Shown here piece after piece: positions 33,882-39,130 of a stretch of 64,000 nucleotides of DNA. How positions within the stretch are numbered: the stretch's first letter is position 1; every line of letters starts with the position of its first letter. A program made the translations under genes and the position numbers. Source of the DNA: Bacteroidota bacterium (lineage in GTDB: Bacteria; Bacteroidota; Bacteroidia; AKYH767-A; 2013-40CM-41-45); assembly GCA_031385005.1 (NCBI GenBank), contig JANNBB010000034.1, forward strand, positions 1,026 through 65,025. The letters run 5' to 3'. The notes beneath the pieces were generated by a model that had not been told where the DNA came from, made no database searches, and was given only the letters and a program-made list of their open reading frames with translations.

Positions 33882-34286
33882 TCAATGAGGTAAACGATCT
33901 TTAAAAAATGAATAGGTATATGTTCCTGCAAGCGCGCTTAACAACAAGATAATTGAAATAAAATACCCGCTTCCCACTTGAATATAAATCGGACCCGGAC
34001 AAGCTCCTGTCAATCCCCAGCCGATTCCGAATAAAGCGGAACCGTAAATGGTACCTTGATTAAATAATTTTCTTCTAGGCTGAATTGTTTCGCCTTGAAA
34101 AGATTTAAATTTGAACTTTTTAATAAGCCACATTCCCCCTATTGCCGTCGGAATAGCTGTCAGAAAAATCCCGAATATCTGTATTCCCTGAAAATGAAAC
34201 ATCTCCTGCATTCTATACCAGGAAACTGCTTCACCTTTTATTAATGCTAAACCGAAAATAAAACCAATTATGAAATATTGAATCAT
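33882..34286 (-). CDS. YeeE/YedE family sulfur-compound transporter, second subunit
   Basis: FGIGWGLTGACPGP motif, SWYRMQEMF, four TM segments; likely start ATG 34286. Confidence 0.85.
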   Translation of the reverse strand: MIQYFIIGFIFGLALIKGEAVSWYRMQEMFHFQGIQIFGIFLTAIPTAIGGMWLIKKFKFKSFQGETIQPRRKLFNQGTIYGSALFGIGWGLTGACPGPIYIQVGSGYFISIILLLSALAGTYTYSFFKDRLPH

Positions 34287-34308
34287 TTCTTTCTCTTTAA
34301 ATAAACAA

Positions 34309-34890
34309 TCAATTACCAATCTTTAAAATAACCGGTAATAAAAATATGCTAGTCAGAATTCCGAAAGCGAAAAAAGTAATTGTGGCAACAAGTGAAGGCC
34401 ACTGAAATGTTGACAAACCTAAAATTCCATGACCGGAAGTACAACCTCCCGCCCACCGTGTTCCAAAACCAACGAGAAAACCTCCTCCGACAATCATAAT
34501 TAATCCTCGCAAATTCAGCAATTCATTAAAATTAAAAATTGAAGAAGGCATTACACCTGACTGATTAGCTATACCATATCCAACAAGGAGTTCTCTTGTT
34601 TCAACTGATAAATGAATGGGTTCATTACTGTTCAATAAAATTCCTCCGACAAATCCACTGGTAATTAAACCTAAAGCAAATACCAGATTCCAACGTTGCT
34701 GTTGCCAATCGTAGTTGAGGAAATTAATTTTGCCCGGTAAAATAGCTGCACAAATTTCTCTTAAGGTTGAAGAAATACCTAAAGATTTATTTCCGACAAT
34801 GAGCAATAACGGAACGCATAAACCAATGATTGGTCCAGAGACATACCAAGGCCAGGGTTGTTTCAGCATCAGGAAAAAAAAATCGAGCAT
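34309..34890 (-). CDS. YeeE/YedE family sulfur-compound transporter, first subunit
   Basis: WPWYVSGP, LGISS, LVGFGTRWAGGCTSGHG motif. Confidence 0.88.
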   Translation of the reverse strand: MLDFFFLMLKQPWPWYVSGPIIGLCVPLLLIVGNKSLGISSTLREICAAILPGKINFLNYDWQQQRWNLVFALGLITSGFVGGILLNSNEPIHLSVETRELLVGYGIANQSGVMPSSIFNFNELLNLRGLIMIVGGGFLVGFGTRWAGGCTSGHGILGLSTFQWPSLVATITFFAFGILTSIFLLPVILKIGN

Positions 34891-34927: not shown

Positions 34928-36091
34928 TTAATATTTTTTAAGTTCGGGCTGAACTTCATCAATCCATGCAATAATACCACCTTTTAAATTATAAACATTT
35001 ACAAAACCGAACTGCTCCTGCAATTGTTTTATAACTTTGGCACTTCTTCCTCCCATCTTGCAATGAACGACGACTTTTTTGCTCCGGTCAATTTTTTCTA
35101 TTGAATTTTCAATAGTTGCAAGCGGAATAAGTTCTCCTCCGATATTCGCAATTTCATATTCATGTGGTTCCCGGACATCGATTAATTGAAAATCTTCGCC
35201 ACTTTTTTGCCAGTTAAATAGTTCTTTGACAGAAATTTCATTTACAAGAGATTCATCGGCCAATTTCAAACCACAGAAAGCTTCATAATCAATCAATGAA
35301 TGAATAGTCGAATTTATTCCGTTTAAAGGATTCGCCGGGTTTCTGCTGATATTGAATGTTCGTGTTTCGAATGATAAAGCGTCGAAAGTAAAAAACCTTC
35401 CTGAAAGAGGTTCACCAATTCCCGTAATAACCTTAATCACTTCCAACCCTTGCAAACTTCCGATGATACCGGGAAGAACGCCTAATACTCCTGCTTCTGC
35501 GCAGTTAGGAACTAATCCGGGTGGTGGTGGTGTTGGATAGAGGTCACGATAGTTGGGGCCTAATTCCCCTTGAGCATTTCTGTAATTAAACACAGCAACC
35601 TGTCCTTCAAATTGAAATATAGATGCATACACATTCGTTTTACCGGTTAAAACAGCTGCATCGTTGACGAGATACCTTGTAGGAAAATTATCTGTACCAT
35701 CTGCGACTACATCGTATTCAGAAAGTATTTCCAAAATATTGGAAGAAGTTATTCGGGTATTATAGGTTTTTATTTGAATGTATGGATTCAGTGATTCCAA
35801 TCTTCTTTTTGCAGCGTCTACTTTGGGTTTTCCTACATCTTCAATACCGAATAATACCTGGCGATGTAGGTTACTGTCATCCACTACATCAAAATCGACA
35901 ATACCCAAGGTTCCAACTCCGGCTGCTGCAAGGTAAAGTAAAAGTGGACTCCCAAGTCCACCGGAACCAACCACTAAAACTTTTGATGCCTTCAATTTAC
36001 TTTGAGCTTCAATTCCGAAATCGGGAATGATGATATGCCGATTGTATCGTGCTAATTCATCTTTAGAAAATTGAATGATTTGATTGGTCAT
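34928..36091 (-). CDS. moeB: MoeZ-type sulfur-carrier adenylyltransferase (ThiF/MoeB E1 fused to rhodanese)
   Basis: RYNRH, VGSGGLGSP, SNLHRQ, DGTDNFPTRY, NYRDLYP...NCAEAG; rhodanese LIDVRE...HCKMGGRS...GGIIAW. Confidence 0.92.
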   Translation of the reverse strand: MTNQIIQFSKDELARYNRHIIIPDFGIEAQSKLKASKVLVVGSGGLGSPLLLYLAAAGVGTLGIVDFDVVDDSNLHRQVLFGIEDVGKPKVDAAKRRLESLNPYIQIKTYNTRITSSNILEILSEYDVVADGTDNFPTRYLVNDAAVLTGKTNVYASIFQFEGQVAVFNYRNAQGELGPNYRDLYPTPPPPGLVPNCAEAGVLGVLPGIIGSLQGLEVIKVITGIGEPLSGRFFTFDALSFETRTFNISRNPANPLNGINSTIHSLIDYEAFCGLKLADESLVNEISVKELFNWQKSGEDFQLIDVREPHEYEIANIGGELIPLATIENSIEKIDRSKKVVVHCKMGGRSAKVIKQLQEQFGFVNVYNLKGGIIAWIDEVQPELKKY

Positions 36092-36105: not shown

Positions 36106-36387
36106 TTATATTGATGTTCCCCCTGCTATTGCAGGAATAATGCTGATAATGGCATCTTTTTTTAAGACTGTTTGCTCTTGTTGAAGATTGCGAATATCGT
36201 CGTTTCCTACGAAAATATTTATAAAACTTCTTAAGTTCCCCTTTTCATCAAGCAAATGCTTTTTCAGGTCCGGGAAATTAAGCGTTAACTCATTCACTAA
36301 ATCTTGTATAGTATTAGCGTTTAATTCCAATCTGCTATTGTTATTAGTGAATTTTCTGAGGGGAGTCGGAATAATGATTGTTGGCAT
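36106..36387 (-). CDS. Ubiquitin-like sulfur carrier (CysO/MoaD/ThiS family) with C-terminal extension
   Basis: IPTPLRKFT, FINIFVGNDDIR, IIPAIAGG followed by TSI-stop. Confidence 0.9.
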   Translation of the reverse strand: MPTIIIPTPLRKFTNNNSRLELNANTIQDLVNELTLNFPDLKKHLLDEKGNLRSFINIFVGNDDIRNLQQEQTVLKKDAIISIIPAIAGGTSI

Positions 36388-36406: not shown

Positions 36407-36826
36407 TTAATTATTAAAGTTTATTATTTCCTCTTCAAACTGTTCAAAATCGTTAAGACGCCACGATCGAATTAAATCAACTTTAGCATTCAAAATAGAA
36501 ACGATAACGTATGAGAAATAGGGTTGCGCCGCCAAACGATCTGTTTCGGAAGGGACAGGTGGATGATCGGGATGAGAATGATAAATTCCCAGAAGTGACA
36601 AATGTCTTTCATCCGCAAATTTTTCTGCATATAAATAATCGGCAGGACTTATGAGGAATCGTCTACGTTGATCCTCCATACTTATATTAACAACAGGGAG
36701 AACAACGTTTACAAATCTTTTTTCGATTTCTTCCATACCTAAAAGAAAACCGCAACATTCGTTGGGATAACTCTTTAAAGCATCTTCACTAATTCGGGAA
36801 ATAGCGTGTGCAGTCAAGTTAATCAT
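36407..36826 (-). CDS. JAMM/MPN+ (M67) metallopeptidase, Mec-like
   Basis: YPNECCG and YHSHPDHPPVPSETD (E...HxH-x7-S-x2-D); start overlaps the stop of the cysteine synthase gene. Confidence 0.92.
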   Translation of the reverse strand: MINLTAHAISRISEDALKSYPNECCGFLLGMEEIEKRFVNVVLPVVNISMEDQRRRFLISPADYLYAEKFADERHLSLLGIYHSHPDHPPVPSETDRLAAQPYFSYVIVSILNAKVDLIRSWRLNDFEQFEEEIINFNN

Positions 36827-37761
36827 AGTCCGAGTTTTTTAATTACTTCACCATACTTAGCAGCATTGTCGGGAAGAATGGTTACAACAATATAGTTTGA
36901 ATTATTTTTTGCTAATTTGAATGCCCCGGTAAGGTTTGCCGCAGATGAAGGGCTAAGTAAAATTCCATCTTGCCTATATATTTGAATCAATGTTTCATAA
37001 GCTTCCTCAGTGGTTACTTCAGCATTTTCATCTGCCAATGAAGCATCGTAAATACCTGGAACAACGGCAGTATCGAGATGTTTCCAACCCTCCATACCAT
37101 GAAGAGCGGAATCCGGGTGAAGGGCAACTAAATGAATGTTTGCATTTTCATCTTTTAACCTTCTGCCGGTACCGATGAATGTCCCTGTAGTTCCCAATCC
37201 GGCCACAAAATGAGTGATCTCAGGAACACATTTTAAAATCTCCAAAGCTGTTGAATCATAATGTGCCTTCCAATTGTTAGGATTTTTATATTGATCCGCA
37301 TAGAAATATTTATCAGAATACTTGAAAGACAATTCCAATGCAACCGATTGTGCGCCATCGGTACCTTCTAGAGGAGAGGTAAAAATTATTTCAACACCCA
37401 GGTTTTCCAGTATTCTTTTTCTTTCTATGGAGGCATTTTCAGGCAAACACAGGGTGACTTGAATTCCGAGTTGATGACAAATTTCCGCATATGCAATTCC
37501 GGTATTACCGCTTGTTGCATCTAACAATCGAATTTCTTTGTTTAATTTTCCTTCGCGGATAGCACCTAATATAATTCCATAGGCAGCACGTGCTTTGACG
37601 CTTCCGGAAAGCTGCATCCACTCCAATTTGGCTAACACTGCTACATGCTTATCGCTCCAATGCTGAAACAATTGCATAGATGTATTCCCAATTTGGTTTC
37701 CCAAATTAATGGCATCCCGGAGTAACACAGAATCGATGTTATTTGATTTTAGCTCTATCAT
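36823..37761 (-). CDS. PLP-dependent cysteine synthase family protein (CysM-like)
   Basis: IGNT, KLE...SGSVKAR PLP lysine, ATSGNTG, QYKNPNN, GLGTTGT, SSAAN, ILPD...KY. Confidence 0.9.
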   Translation of the reverse strand: MIELKSNNIDSVLLRDAINLGNQIGNTSMQLFQHWSDKHVAVLAKLEWMQLSGSVKARAAYGIILGAIREGKLNKEIRLLDATSGNTGIAYAEICHQLGIQVTLCLPENASIERKRILENLGVEIIFTSPLEGTDGAQSVALELSFKYSDKYFYADQYKNPNNWKAHYDSTALEILKCVPEITHFVAGLGTTGTFIGTGRRLKDENANIHLVALHPDSALHGMEGWKHLDTAVVPGIYDASLADENAEVTTEEAYETLIQIYRQDGILLSPSSAANLTGAFKLAKNNSNYIVVTILPDNAAKYGEVIKKLGL

Positions 37762-37768
37762 TTTCTAC

Positions 37769-37800
37769 AAAAAAAAAGCTCCACATTTCGGTGGAGCTTT
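37769..37800 (-). terminator. Intrinsic terminator in the 5' leader of the sulfur-relay operon (attenuator)
   Basis: Minus strand AAAGCTCCAC-CGAAAT-GTGGAGC-TTTTTTTTT, ending 7 nt before the cysteine synthase ATG. No large gene ends here on either strand. Confidence 0.85.
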
Positions 37801-37824
37801 CTTCAAGGTTATGCTTTTTAATTT

Positions 37825-37914
37825 TTATGCACAATAATCATTGTCCACCACAATGATAAATCCTGTGGTTTGACAACATGATGTACTTAGAATATTTTCT
37901 CTTATTAGTTTCAT
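37825..37914 (-). CDS. Putative Cys-containing leader peptide MKLIRENILSTSCCQTTGFIIVVDNDYCA (29 aa)
   Basis: ATG 37914 to TAA 37825 with AT-rich upstream context. Tandem TGT TGT at codons 13-14 and TGT at codon 28. Stop lies 24 nt before the terminator. Confidence 0.65.
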   Translation of the reverse strand: MKLIRENILSTSCCQTTGFIIVVDNDYCA

Positions 37915-38095
37915 TTCATTTAATTATATGCAATGTAAGTAAAATCTAATCCGTTGTCAAGTTAATATTTAAAATAATTTCAATTGGGGGATTAATTAAA
38001 CATTACTTATTCATCAAAATCTTTAAAATAATTGAAATTGATCCCCAAGAGTGGTAGATGTTTTCTAACTTTACCAAGATCGTGATTCAACTTGT

Positions 38096-39130
38096 ATGAA
38101 GAATTCTTACGTTTACCGTAATCCCAAGTATTTTCTTAGTTTGTTACCCGGAATCGCTGTTATTTACGGTAATATTATAGGTGGTTGGTGGGGGCTTTCA
38201 AACCTGGTCTTTTCACTTGGCATTTTGGCATTAGTAGAATGGTTTACACCCGTAGATAAGAGTAATGAAAACACTTCTGAATCACTCATTCCTGATCTGG
38301 TATTAATCCTGCACGTATGCATTCAAATACTTGCACTATCCACTTTTTTCTATTCGATACATCAAAATAAATTTTCTTTCTGGCAATTACACTGGGCAGC
38401 GGTGAGCGTAGGGATTCACAGTGGCTCCTCCTCTATCGTCATTGCACATGAAATGATACACAGGAAAAATAAAATCTGGCGATGGTTAGGGAAATTTTTA
38501 CTATTCACCGCAGGAAATGTATATTTCTTTGTTGAACATCTTCGTGTGCATCACAAATGGGTAGGAACTGAGAAGGATCCGGCAAGCGCATATTACAATG
38601 AATCACTTTATCGTTTTTATTTACGAACTACCTACGGACAATTTACAAATGCCTTATCTATGGAATCAGAACGATTAAAATCTGAAAATCGTTTTCCTTA
38701 TAGCATGAGAAATTATGTAGTTCAAAATTTATTATTATTAACAGTCTTAATTATTGCTCTGTACTATTTCATAGGCACTGCTGCAGTCATTGCATTTATA
38801 TTTCAGGCAATCATCGCTAATTTCCTTTTAGAATATACGAACTACATTGAACATTACGGACTACGCAGAAATGAAAATGAGCGGGTGAATGAAAAACATT
38901 CCTGGCAGAGTGACAAAGTAATATCGAGATTTTTTCTCATTGACCTCAGTCGCCATAGCGATCATCACTACTATGCATCCAAACCTTTTCATCAACTAAA
39001 TTCACTTCCCGGAAGTCCCGTTCTGCCTACCGGATACGTTACCAGTATTTATCTGGCATTGATTCCACCACTCTGGTATAAAGTGGTGAACAAAAGAATT
39101 AAAGAATTCAATTCAAGTCAATCGCTTTAA
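38096..39130 (+). CDS. alkB: Alkane 1-monooxygenase (AlkB) family membrane di-iron enzyme
   Basis: His boxes HEMIH, EHLRVHH, NYIEHYGL (HYG motif), LSRHSDHH. Confidence 0.85.
   Translation: MKNSYVYRNPKYFLSLLPGIAVIYGNIIGGWWGLSNLVFSLGILALVEWFTPVDKSNENTSESLIPDLVLILHVCIQILALSTFFYSIHQNKFSFWQLHWAAVSVGIHSGSSSIVIAHEMIHRKNKIWRWLGKFLLFTAGNVYFFVEHLRVHHKWVGTEKDPASAYYNESLYRFYLRTTYGQFTNALSMESERLKSENRFPYSMRNYVVQNLLLLTVLIIALYYFIGTAAVIAFIFQAIIANFLLEYTNYIEHYGLRRNENERVNEKHSWQSDKVISRFFLIDLSRHSDHHYYASKPFHQLNSLPGSPVLPTGYVTSIYLALIPPLWYKVVNKRIKEFNSSQSL

Follow-up and report, generated by a model that had tools for sequence, protein, structure and literature searches.

Among described regulators that read cysteine codons, the one closest to the element reported here is uORFC-8-2, a predicted ribosome-mediated cysteine attenuator upstream of cysS that is placed in Rhodobacterales only and that has two tandem Cys codons (at about peptide positions 14-15), two stems and a terminal U run, as far as the accessible text of that report goes (PMC8632094). 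In mycobacteria, a leaderless polycysteine small open reading frame (sORF) functions as a translational attenuator, and the accessible part of that 2020 report states that cysteine attenuation mediated by an upstream open reading frame (uORF) was previously undescribed (bioRxiv 10.1101/834739). Leader peptides with Cys runs also precede cys and cbs genes in Actinobacteria, with no conserved terminators according to the portion of the account available (PMC1262725). In Bacteroidota, 'strong clues' for leader-peptide attenuation before amino-acid biosynthesis operons have been reported for Flavobacterium psychrophilum; the accessible main text names no amino acid or operon, and a Cys example may be contained in its Table S7 or supplementary information (SI) (PMC9723704). 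Here, we analyze a Cys-codon leader upstream of a cysM-like cysteine synthase gene on the minus strand of a 64,000-nt stretch of DNA from a Bacteroidota bacterium (assembly GCA_031385005.1, contig JANNBB010000034.1, positions 1,026 to 65,025; hereafter, the window).

We suggest that this leader is a ribosome-mediated transcription attenuator that monitors how much charged tRNA-Cys is available and controls read-through into an operon of the cysM-JAMM-CysO-MoeZ type; judged from sequence comparison, we put the probability of this reading at about 85%. That the element in the window senses Cys-tRNA is very probable. An earlier note on this DNA, made from the letters alone, had proposed the same mechanism, and comparative evidence now supports it: the uORF and the terminator are conserved, and the antiterminator changes together with the terminator. 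The note had known of no characterized Bacteroidota example; we likewise found no Bacteroidota Cys leader in the accessible literature, a coverage outside which lie subscription journals and supplements such as Table S7/SI of PMC9723704. The precedent that it drew from mycobacteria has to be replaced, since the mycobacterial system is, in the accessible text, translational and has no terminator (bioRxiv 10.1101/834739), and the Rhodobacterales cysS attenuator is the closer parallel (PMC8632094).

Compared by description, in the accessible text, the leader in the window resembles uORFC-8-2 in its tandem Cys pair (Cys13-14 in the window). However, uORFC-8-2 controls cysteinyl-tRNA synthetase, while the window element precedes a biosynthetic operon and its orthologs mostly carry 4-8 Cys codons. 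With the actinobacterial leaders it shares a Cys-codon run in a uORF ahead of sulfur or cysteine genes, for which Cys-tRNA sensing has been proposed or shown in the accounts available. In the actinobacterial sORFs, the Cys run occupies the 3' end and base-pairs with the Shine-Dalgarno region of the following gene, whereas in the present leaders conservation falls on a terminator and its matching antiterminator; the features that the accessible text gives for a mycobacterial sORF are not those of the window, in which the tandem Cys codons sit 48 nt before the leader stop codon and a terminator follows. As in the trp, his, phe, thr and leu attenuators of Proteobacteria (Rfam Trp_leader, His_leader, Phe_leader, Thr_leader), the window terminator immediately precedes the first structural gene, and the alternative pairing takes the 5' arm of the terminator. 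A further likeness would be that, in a fold predicted for the subgroup of the window, the regulatory codons lie in the hairpin that masks the antiterminator. Unlike these classical attenuators, the window element concerns a different amino acid, phylum and sequence, lacks a Shine-Dalgarno sequence and belongs to a class whose antiterminator occupies a hairpin loop on a covarying stem. Neither the window nor 15 orthologous loci (in total, 88,605 bases) gave an Rfam match at gathering level; in the window, Phe_leader (RF01859) scored 26.2 bits versus a gathering level of 55, mostly on the terminator, and Thr_leader (RF00506) 18.5 versus 55.

Results

Layout of the leader region

Two alignments are referred to throughout, i.e., A1, which contains the window and the three closest orthologous leaders, and A2, which contains 29 leaders, including that of the window, that share the antiterminator/terminator pair GGUGGAG/CUCCACC (class A). 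The core features of the leader region are as follows.

37825-37914, minus strand: leader open reading frame (ORF) of 29 codons plus stop, with the ATG at 37914 and the TAA at 37827-37825; peptide MKLIRENILSTSCCQTTGFIIVVDNDYCA
37873-37878, minus strand: tandem Cys codons TGT TGT (Cys13-Cys14), read from the sequence and invariant in A1
37831-37833, minus strand: Cys28 codon TGT, read from the sequence
37862-37882, minus strand: region 1, the predicted 5' strand of the long hairpin of ribosome-free RNA, with the Cys codons and CCAC (RNAalifold consensus of the four closest leaders and single-sequence minimum free energy fold)
37837-37853, minus strand: region 2, UUGUGGUGGACAAUGAU, from predicted folds; invariant in A1
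37844-37849, minus strand: antiterminator core GGUGGA, the exact complement of UCCACC at 37795-37790 in the terminator 5' arm
37837-37857, minus strand: local hairpin P1, AUCAUUGU-GGUGG-ACAAUGAU, with GGUGG in the loop, read from the sequence; a homologous stem is present in class A
37769-37802, minus strand: intrinsic terminator with the GCUCCAC 5' arm at 37797-37791, the loop at 37790-37785, the GUGGAGC 3' arm at 37784-37778, U9 at 37777-37769 and an A/U stem extension

The terminator has the 5' side AAAGCUCCAC at 37800-37791, the loop CGAAAU and, with the A/U extension, a hairpin energy of -18.6 kcal/mol. It begins 24 nt after the leader stop codon, and its U9 ends 7 nt before the ATG of the cysM-like gene (37761). 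Because these 7 nt leave no room for a separate promoter, cysM depends on read-through. The leader ORF with its tandem Cys codons, the strong terminator with both of its distances and the complementarity between GGUGGA and UCCACC had all been described in the earlier note, and each was found exactly where it had been placed. The same note had described P1 as a separate hairpin; its presence and coordinates stand, and its separateness, in the sense of being incidental, does not, because the stem covaries in the 29 related leaders (see below).

Orthologous leaders

A search with the synthase protein, with one genome per species, yielded 69 loci. Four of these have <150 nt upstream and six are archaeal or from Planctomycetota by record title, which leaves 59 Bacteroidota-type loci. 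A Cys-run uORF lies directly upstream of cysM in 54 of the 59, and in three more (L066, L073 and L081) Cys-run uORFs lie at the operon head ~0.9-1.1 kb upstream; the same criteria returned none on the reverse complement of the same regions (0/59) and none at the archaeal and Planctomycetota orthologs (0/6). Thus, the Cys-containing uORF, whose absence from orthologs the earlier note had named as speaking against its reading, is widely present. A strict script that took the outermost ATG accounted for 51 leaders, including one chance ORF in L081; leaders were added at L039, L053 and L060, in which the frame opens further upstream, and at L055, which has a GTG/TTG start.

The 54 leaders encode peptides of 17-57 amino acids (median, 28), such as MTFHNPHKNCCCCCCQHTRVIGVGDSHW in L033, and have Cys runs of 2-8 codons (median, 5) made up of 207 TGT and 55 TGC codons and no others. 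From the Cys run to the stop codon there are 18-60 nt, and in most class-A leaders 42 nt. The two orthologs from the same genus have the same leader, with the peptide MKHL(I/N)AYTLCTSCCRSHESIVVVDNDNCV, and the same terminator. Isolate records with both the operon and the leader include those of Paraflavitalea (L033, L035 and L068), Pseudoflavitalea sp. (L058) and Puia sp. (L095).

Of the 54 proximal leaders, 52 have a terminator downstream of the uORF; the exceptions are L082, which has none, and L047, in which the script picked a doubtful site. The stop codon is mostly 25-46 nt from the terminator arm, and the U run is 7-116 nt from the ATG, except in L043, where the leader lies 249 nt upstream. 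Across the 29 leaders in A2, the terminator helix is 96.2% paired. In L082 (a Balneolales record), the uORF, located 244-142 nt ahead of cysM, closes with a run of eight Cys codons immediately followed by the stop codon, and no terminator was found after it, a layout nearer to the actinobacterial type than to that of the window. L050 retains the terminator (GACUCCAC...GUGGA-U7) together with a GUGGAGGG element in the region ~60-170 nt ahead of cysM but lacks a Cys-run uORF; possibly, this is a decayed leader.

Pairing between leader and terminator

In the window, the strongest duplex that the terminator 5' arm forms with sequence downstream of the Cys codons has an energy of -11.1 kcal/mol (z = -2.77). 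Across leaders, the strongest such duplex falls within the uORF at a distance of 10-30 nt downstream of the last Cys codon, with a mean z of -2.63 and 36 of 53 loci at z < -2 (200 shuffles per locus). The sequences involved differ between leaders: in addition to the 29 class-A loci, nine loci have the antiterminator/terminator pair CACCGAAG/CUUCGGUG, six have GGGAAAGGC/GCCUUUCC, and eight further classes are singletons, giving 11 classes in all. In a class-level permutation with one representative per terminator class, matched pairs had a mean energy of -13.08 kcal/mol versus -8.46 kcal/mol (standard deviation, 0.68) for deranged pairs, and none of 7297 derangements was as low as the matched pairing. 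For 40 of 52 terminators, the leader's own segment ranked in the top tenth when compared with segments from other classes. The match is weak in four of the singleton classes (L042, L043, L080 and L084). Within class A, the antiterminator core pairs are kept in 27-29 of the 29 leaders.

The P1 stem is 77% paired across class A, and seven of its eight pairs have changed on both sides; its covariation score was reached by 0 of 500 shuffles, and slid registers scored far lower. This covariation argues that P1 is a selected feature.

In the predicted folds, region 2 has three alternatives, i.e., to pair with region 1, to fold locally or to pair with the terminator 5' arm. The RNAalifold consensus for the window subgroup contains a long hairpin in which the 5' strand UGUUGUC, with the Cys codons, and CCAC face the 3' strand UUGUGG..GACAAU; this 3' strand means that four of the six antiterminator bases would be masked in the absence of a ribosome. 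The window subgroup is therefore predicted to have the classical 1:2 / 2:3 / 3:4 layout.

Folding with and without a ribosome

The 186-nt leader folds with -42.5 kcal/mol (z = -4.30; 0/200 shuffles as stable). For constrained folds, we used nascent window RNA that ends before the terminator 3' arm, with or without a ribosome footprint. In the ribosome-free RNA, forcing the antiterminator is 6.3 kcal/mol worse (-15.1 versus -21.4 kcal/mol). With the ribosome on Cys14, the two states are isoenergetic (-11.7 kcal/mol with the antiterminator forced versus -11.8 kcal/mol). When the footprint is moved to the stop codon, the fold restores the CCACA/UGUGG pairing behind the ribosome and leaves the terminator 5' arm free. 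These folds, which the earlier note had called for with and without the ribosome footprint masked, fit its stalling logic.

Start region and further features

Outside the core, the leader region contains the following features.

37955-37960, minus strand: TTGACA, a candidate upstream promoter element (-33/-35-like) with a putative function; TTGAC is invariant in the four closest leaders (A1)
37930-37937, minus strand: TACATTGC, a relaxed match to the Bacteroidota -7 motif that ends 15 nt before the leader ATG; candidate
37911-37919, minus strand: ATG-AAA-TGA mini-ORF that overlaps the leader start, read from the sequence
37810-37833, minus strand: predicted spacer hairpin (UUGUGCA...UGCAUAA region) that spans the stop codon; weak, with one pair changed on both sides

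A consensus promoter scan matched TTGACA-17-TACATT at 10 of 12 positions, and promoter-like sites overall were not above shuffles (27 versus 30.4). TTGAC and TAyATTGCAT are kept among the four closest leaders. The -7 motif of Bacteroidota is TAnnTTTG; of 53 orthologous leaders, 18 contain its strict form within the 60 nt that precede the leader start, versus 1 of 53 on the reverse complement. The strict form ends a median of 22 nt ahead of the start codon, while the window has the relaxed form only. No Shine-Dalgarno sequence precedes the leader ATG, as is usual in Bacteroidota. The mini-ORF, to which the earlier note had drawn attention, is indeed present; its relevance did not hold up, as it is not conserved and, among the A1 leaders, occurs in the window alone (not in L031, L032 or L034), and it is thus probably incidental.

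The genes behind the leader

The leader lies in a 334-nt intergenic region between a minus-strand six-gene operon and a divergent plus-strand fatty-acid desaturase gene (38096-39130). The genes of the operon are as follows.

36823-37761, minus strand: pyridoxal phosphate-dependent cysteine synthase, CysM-like, the first regulated gene (Pfam PF00291, PALP, 2.8e-51)
36407-36826, minus strand: Prok-JAB (JAMM) gene (Pfam)
36106-36387, minus strand: ThiS/CysO-like carrier with a ThiS fold (Pfam)
34928-36091, minus strand: ThiF + rhodanese E1 (Pfam; nearest in NCBIfam, MoeB/MoeZ)
34309-34890 and 33882-34319, minus strand: two Sulf_transp genes at the operon end (Pfam)

The nearest NCBIfam models for the synthase are cysKM/cysM, below their cut-offs (262 bits versus 344/394), and its relatives in PDB include the CysM chains 2bht and 3dwg_A/3dki. 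The best PDB match of the carrier is 3dwg_C; the 3dwg and 3dki entries are those that we take to be the CysM-CysO pair of Mycobacterium tuberculosis, in which the pathway of CysM and a CysO-like carrier has been best studied. By their co-location, the regulated genes appear to form a set for a thiocarboxylate carrier pathway of the CysM/CysO type, with predicted enzyme chemistry. Their order is kept in the orthologs (tblastn, 69 loci), with JAB found in 65, ThiS in 66 and ThiF/rhodanese in 65; the misses are L051 and L094 for JAB, in addition to contigs with early ends.

Among 40 relatives, only two genomes, both from the same genus, have a close ortholog of the synthase (69% and 67% identity). 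The cysM-JAMM-CysO-E1 operon is patchy; of 19 other genomes in the genus, only 2 have a close ortholog, and outside the genus the nearest relatives are in metagenome-assembled genomes of the Chitinophagales type. At the Saprospiraceae-type loci L051, L061, L064, L069 and L071, the leader comes after the two Sulf_transp genes, which in the window stand at the operon end; accordingly, these genes are outside attenuator control at those loci.

Tandem leaders and leaders before other genes

At nine loci, a pair of complete Cys attenuators stands in tandem. In six of these (L056, L059, L074, L076, L080 and L084), the units are within the upstream 450 nt, and in L066, L073 and L081 they are ~0.9-1.1 kb upstream (L073:1466-1750 was checked by eye). 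Each unit is on the same strand and has its own terminator and its own matching antiterminator, an arrangement that recalls tandem riboswitches. Between the tandem leaders and cysM, a gene for a 1-Cys peroxiredoxin (AhpC-TSA + 1-cysPrx_C) is present at L066:1646-2323 and L073:1778-2431, and also in L081. At these Flavobacteriales-type loci, a thiol peroxidase would, therefore, fall under cysteine control.

The same design of a Cys run, a matching antiterminator and a terminator precedes OAH/OAS sulfhydrylase genes (TIGR01326 above cut-off) on the minus strand in two other Bacteroidota genomes (L128:1381-1580 and L129:1391-1590). Another 18 upstream regions of OAH/OAS sulfhydrylase genes (L130-L147) come from 17 of 101 genomes of the class; in 12 of these regions, there are uORFs rich in Cys or in a mixture of Cys and Met, e.g., MQQPCCMCICCPCC. 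In most of these sulfhydrylase uORFs, the run adjoins the stop codon and no terminator is obvious close by.

Among 25 matches of a lenient script in the window's own genome, one of which was listed twice, only the leader in the window has this layout before a sulfur gene, the neighbors of the other matches not having been inspected. Outside the window, a stretch of this genome on contig C9 (C9:87607-87642) contains eleven TGT and a TGC in T-rich low-complexity sequence with no short ORF and terminator; it resembles a microsatellite within a gene on the opposite strand. A tally of the pattern TGYTGYTGYTGYTGY was dropped. It matched 383 of 401 Bacteroidota genomes, mostly in other frames inside genes, and was uninformative because the backwards control also matched often; real leaders were present in 3 of 30 returned loci.

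Discussion

We infer that the leader is translated, that the ribosome stalls on the Cys codons, that ribosome and RNA polymerase are coupled, and that read-through increases when Cys-tRNA is scarce. According to this model, transcription would start ~10 nt upstream of the 29-codon leader ORF. When Cys-tRNA is plentiful, the ribosome would pass Cys13-14, reach the stop codon and cover the 3' part of region 2, while CCAC would re-pair with GUGG behind it. With its 5' arm free, the GCUCCAC/GUGGAGC-U9 hairpin would form, and transcription would end 7 nt before cysM. When Cys-tRNA is scarce, the ribosome would stall on the tandem Cys codons and cover region 1; the GGUGGA of region 2 would be freed to pair with the UCCACC of the emerging terminator 5' arm, the terminator would then be too late to form, and RNA polymerase would continue into the operon.

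Several observations weigh against this model. The window has only two tandem Cys codons versus a median of five in the orthologs, and its antiterminator is, as the earlier note had cautioned, only 6-7 bp in length. Once complete, the terminator state exceeds the antiterminator state in stability by 15 kcal/mol (-30.1 versus -15.1 kcal/mol), and read-through must, therefore, be kinetic; the trp attenuator of Escherichia coli has a similar energetic imbalance. With P1 folded, the 5-nt GGUGG loop in the window reaches the terminator arm only as a strained pseudoknot, a structure that RNAfold cannot model. In masked folding of 52 loci, the 5' arm was mostly paired upstream at 40-41 loci with a stalled ribosome and at 19 with the ribosome at the stop codon, but also at 26 in free RNA, by a crude metric that counts any upstream pairing and is blind to pseudoknots. 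At Saprospiraceae-type loci, the stop codon is so far downstream that a ribosome there leaves the antiterminator uncovered. The 1:2 hairpin of the window subgroup is based on four close sequences with almost no covariation, and a common 1:2 (anti-antiterminator) helix for the 29 class-A leaders was rejected, as it is 50.9% paired and no better than shuffles or slides. The covariation of terminator and antiterminator for which the earlier note had asked is found across the 11 terminator classes and is lacking inside class A, in which both sides are invariant, so that its support comes from between classes. L050 and L098 carry the operon, and no Cys leader was found in either. Finally, a consensus terminator scan did not list the window terminator (5 terminator-like sites in 8 kb versus 5.7 expected), probably because the A/U stem extension absorbs the T run under the rule of the scan.

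An alternative is that the Cys-run uORF acts on translation or on Rho-dependent polarity as in mycobacteria, with the hairpin being a leaky constitutive terminator or a stabilizer. The mycobacterial polycysteine sORFs act on translation with no terminator, as far as the accessible text goes (bioRxiv 10.1101/834739), and both the L082 leader, with its eight Cys codons right before the stop, and the many Cys/Met-rich uORFs before OAH/OAS sulfhydrylase genes that end in a Cys run would fit such a mechanism. However, the terminator is retained in all but two of the proximal leaders, and the complementary stretch of the uORF changes with it, a pattern that would be difficult to account for if the terminator were not itself the element under regulation. 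For these reasons, we consider a translational or Rho-dependent mechanism unlikely.

Alternatively, the UGU/UGC repeat and the hairpins could be bound by a protein or a small molecule, with translation being irrelevant. While the lack of a Shine-Dalgarno sequence before the leader ATG would be compatible with this idea, and proteins might recognize UGU repeats, the repeat shares its reading frame with the start and stop codons of a short ORF (54/59 loci versus 0/59 on the reverse strand), varies only at the third codon position (TGT/TGC) and is followed, in class A, by a stop codon at a steady distance past the antiterminator (42 nt after the Cys run in most), and no Rfam riboswitch matches. 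We regard a binding site as very unlikely. The least probable explanation, a functional Cys-rich micropeptide (metal- or sulfur-binding, or the precursor of a ribosomally synthesized and post-translationally modified peptide [RiPP]) with its own terminator and a mere co-localization with cysM, could account for Cys runs that might bind metals, for a hairpin that ends a small transcript and for the VVVDNDxC C-terminal half kept among the four closest leaders, but is contradicted by peptides that are unrelated between clades outside a Cys run of 2-8 codons, by conserved C-terminal codons that coincide with the terminator-pairing RNA element GUGGUGGACAAUGAU, are conserved at the nucleotide level and vary by clade in step with the terminator, and by the 7 nt between U run and ATG that make cysM dependent on read-through.

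Beyond the window, we speculate, at slightly less than even odds, that Bacteroidota have a phylum-wide and uncatalogued set of leader peptides, with Cys codons or with Cys and Met codons mixed, that control sulfur amino-acid genes, often as tandem attenuators, and that the read-through state of the Chitinophagaceae type is a pseudoknot formed by an antiterminator in the loop of a covarying hairpin and not a simple 2:3 hairpin. If so, this set would imply tight coupling between ribosome and RNA polymerase in a phylum largely without initiation led by Shine-Dalgarno sequences.

Altogether, sequence comparisons suggest that the attenuator in the window belongs to a new and uncatalogued family of a known kind of regulator that is widespread in Bacteroidota. 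With clear boundaries and >50 natural variants, this family of Cys leaders could enter RNA family databases and could be used to annotate cysteine-regulated genes in Bacteroidota genomes, which are mostly metagenome-derived. It would represent a rare case of an attenuator for cysteine with an intrinsic terminator, and it would link the thiocarboxylate pathway of the CysM/CysO type in Bacteroidota to cysteine limitation. Moreover, the leaders may offer a handle on transcription-translation coupling in a phylum with unusual translation initiation, and the natural tandem attenuators may serve as a system for how two serial switches sharpen a response.

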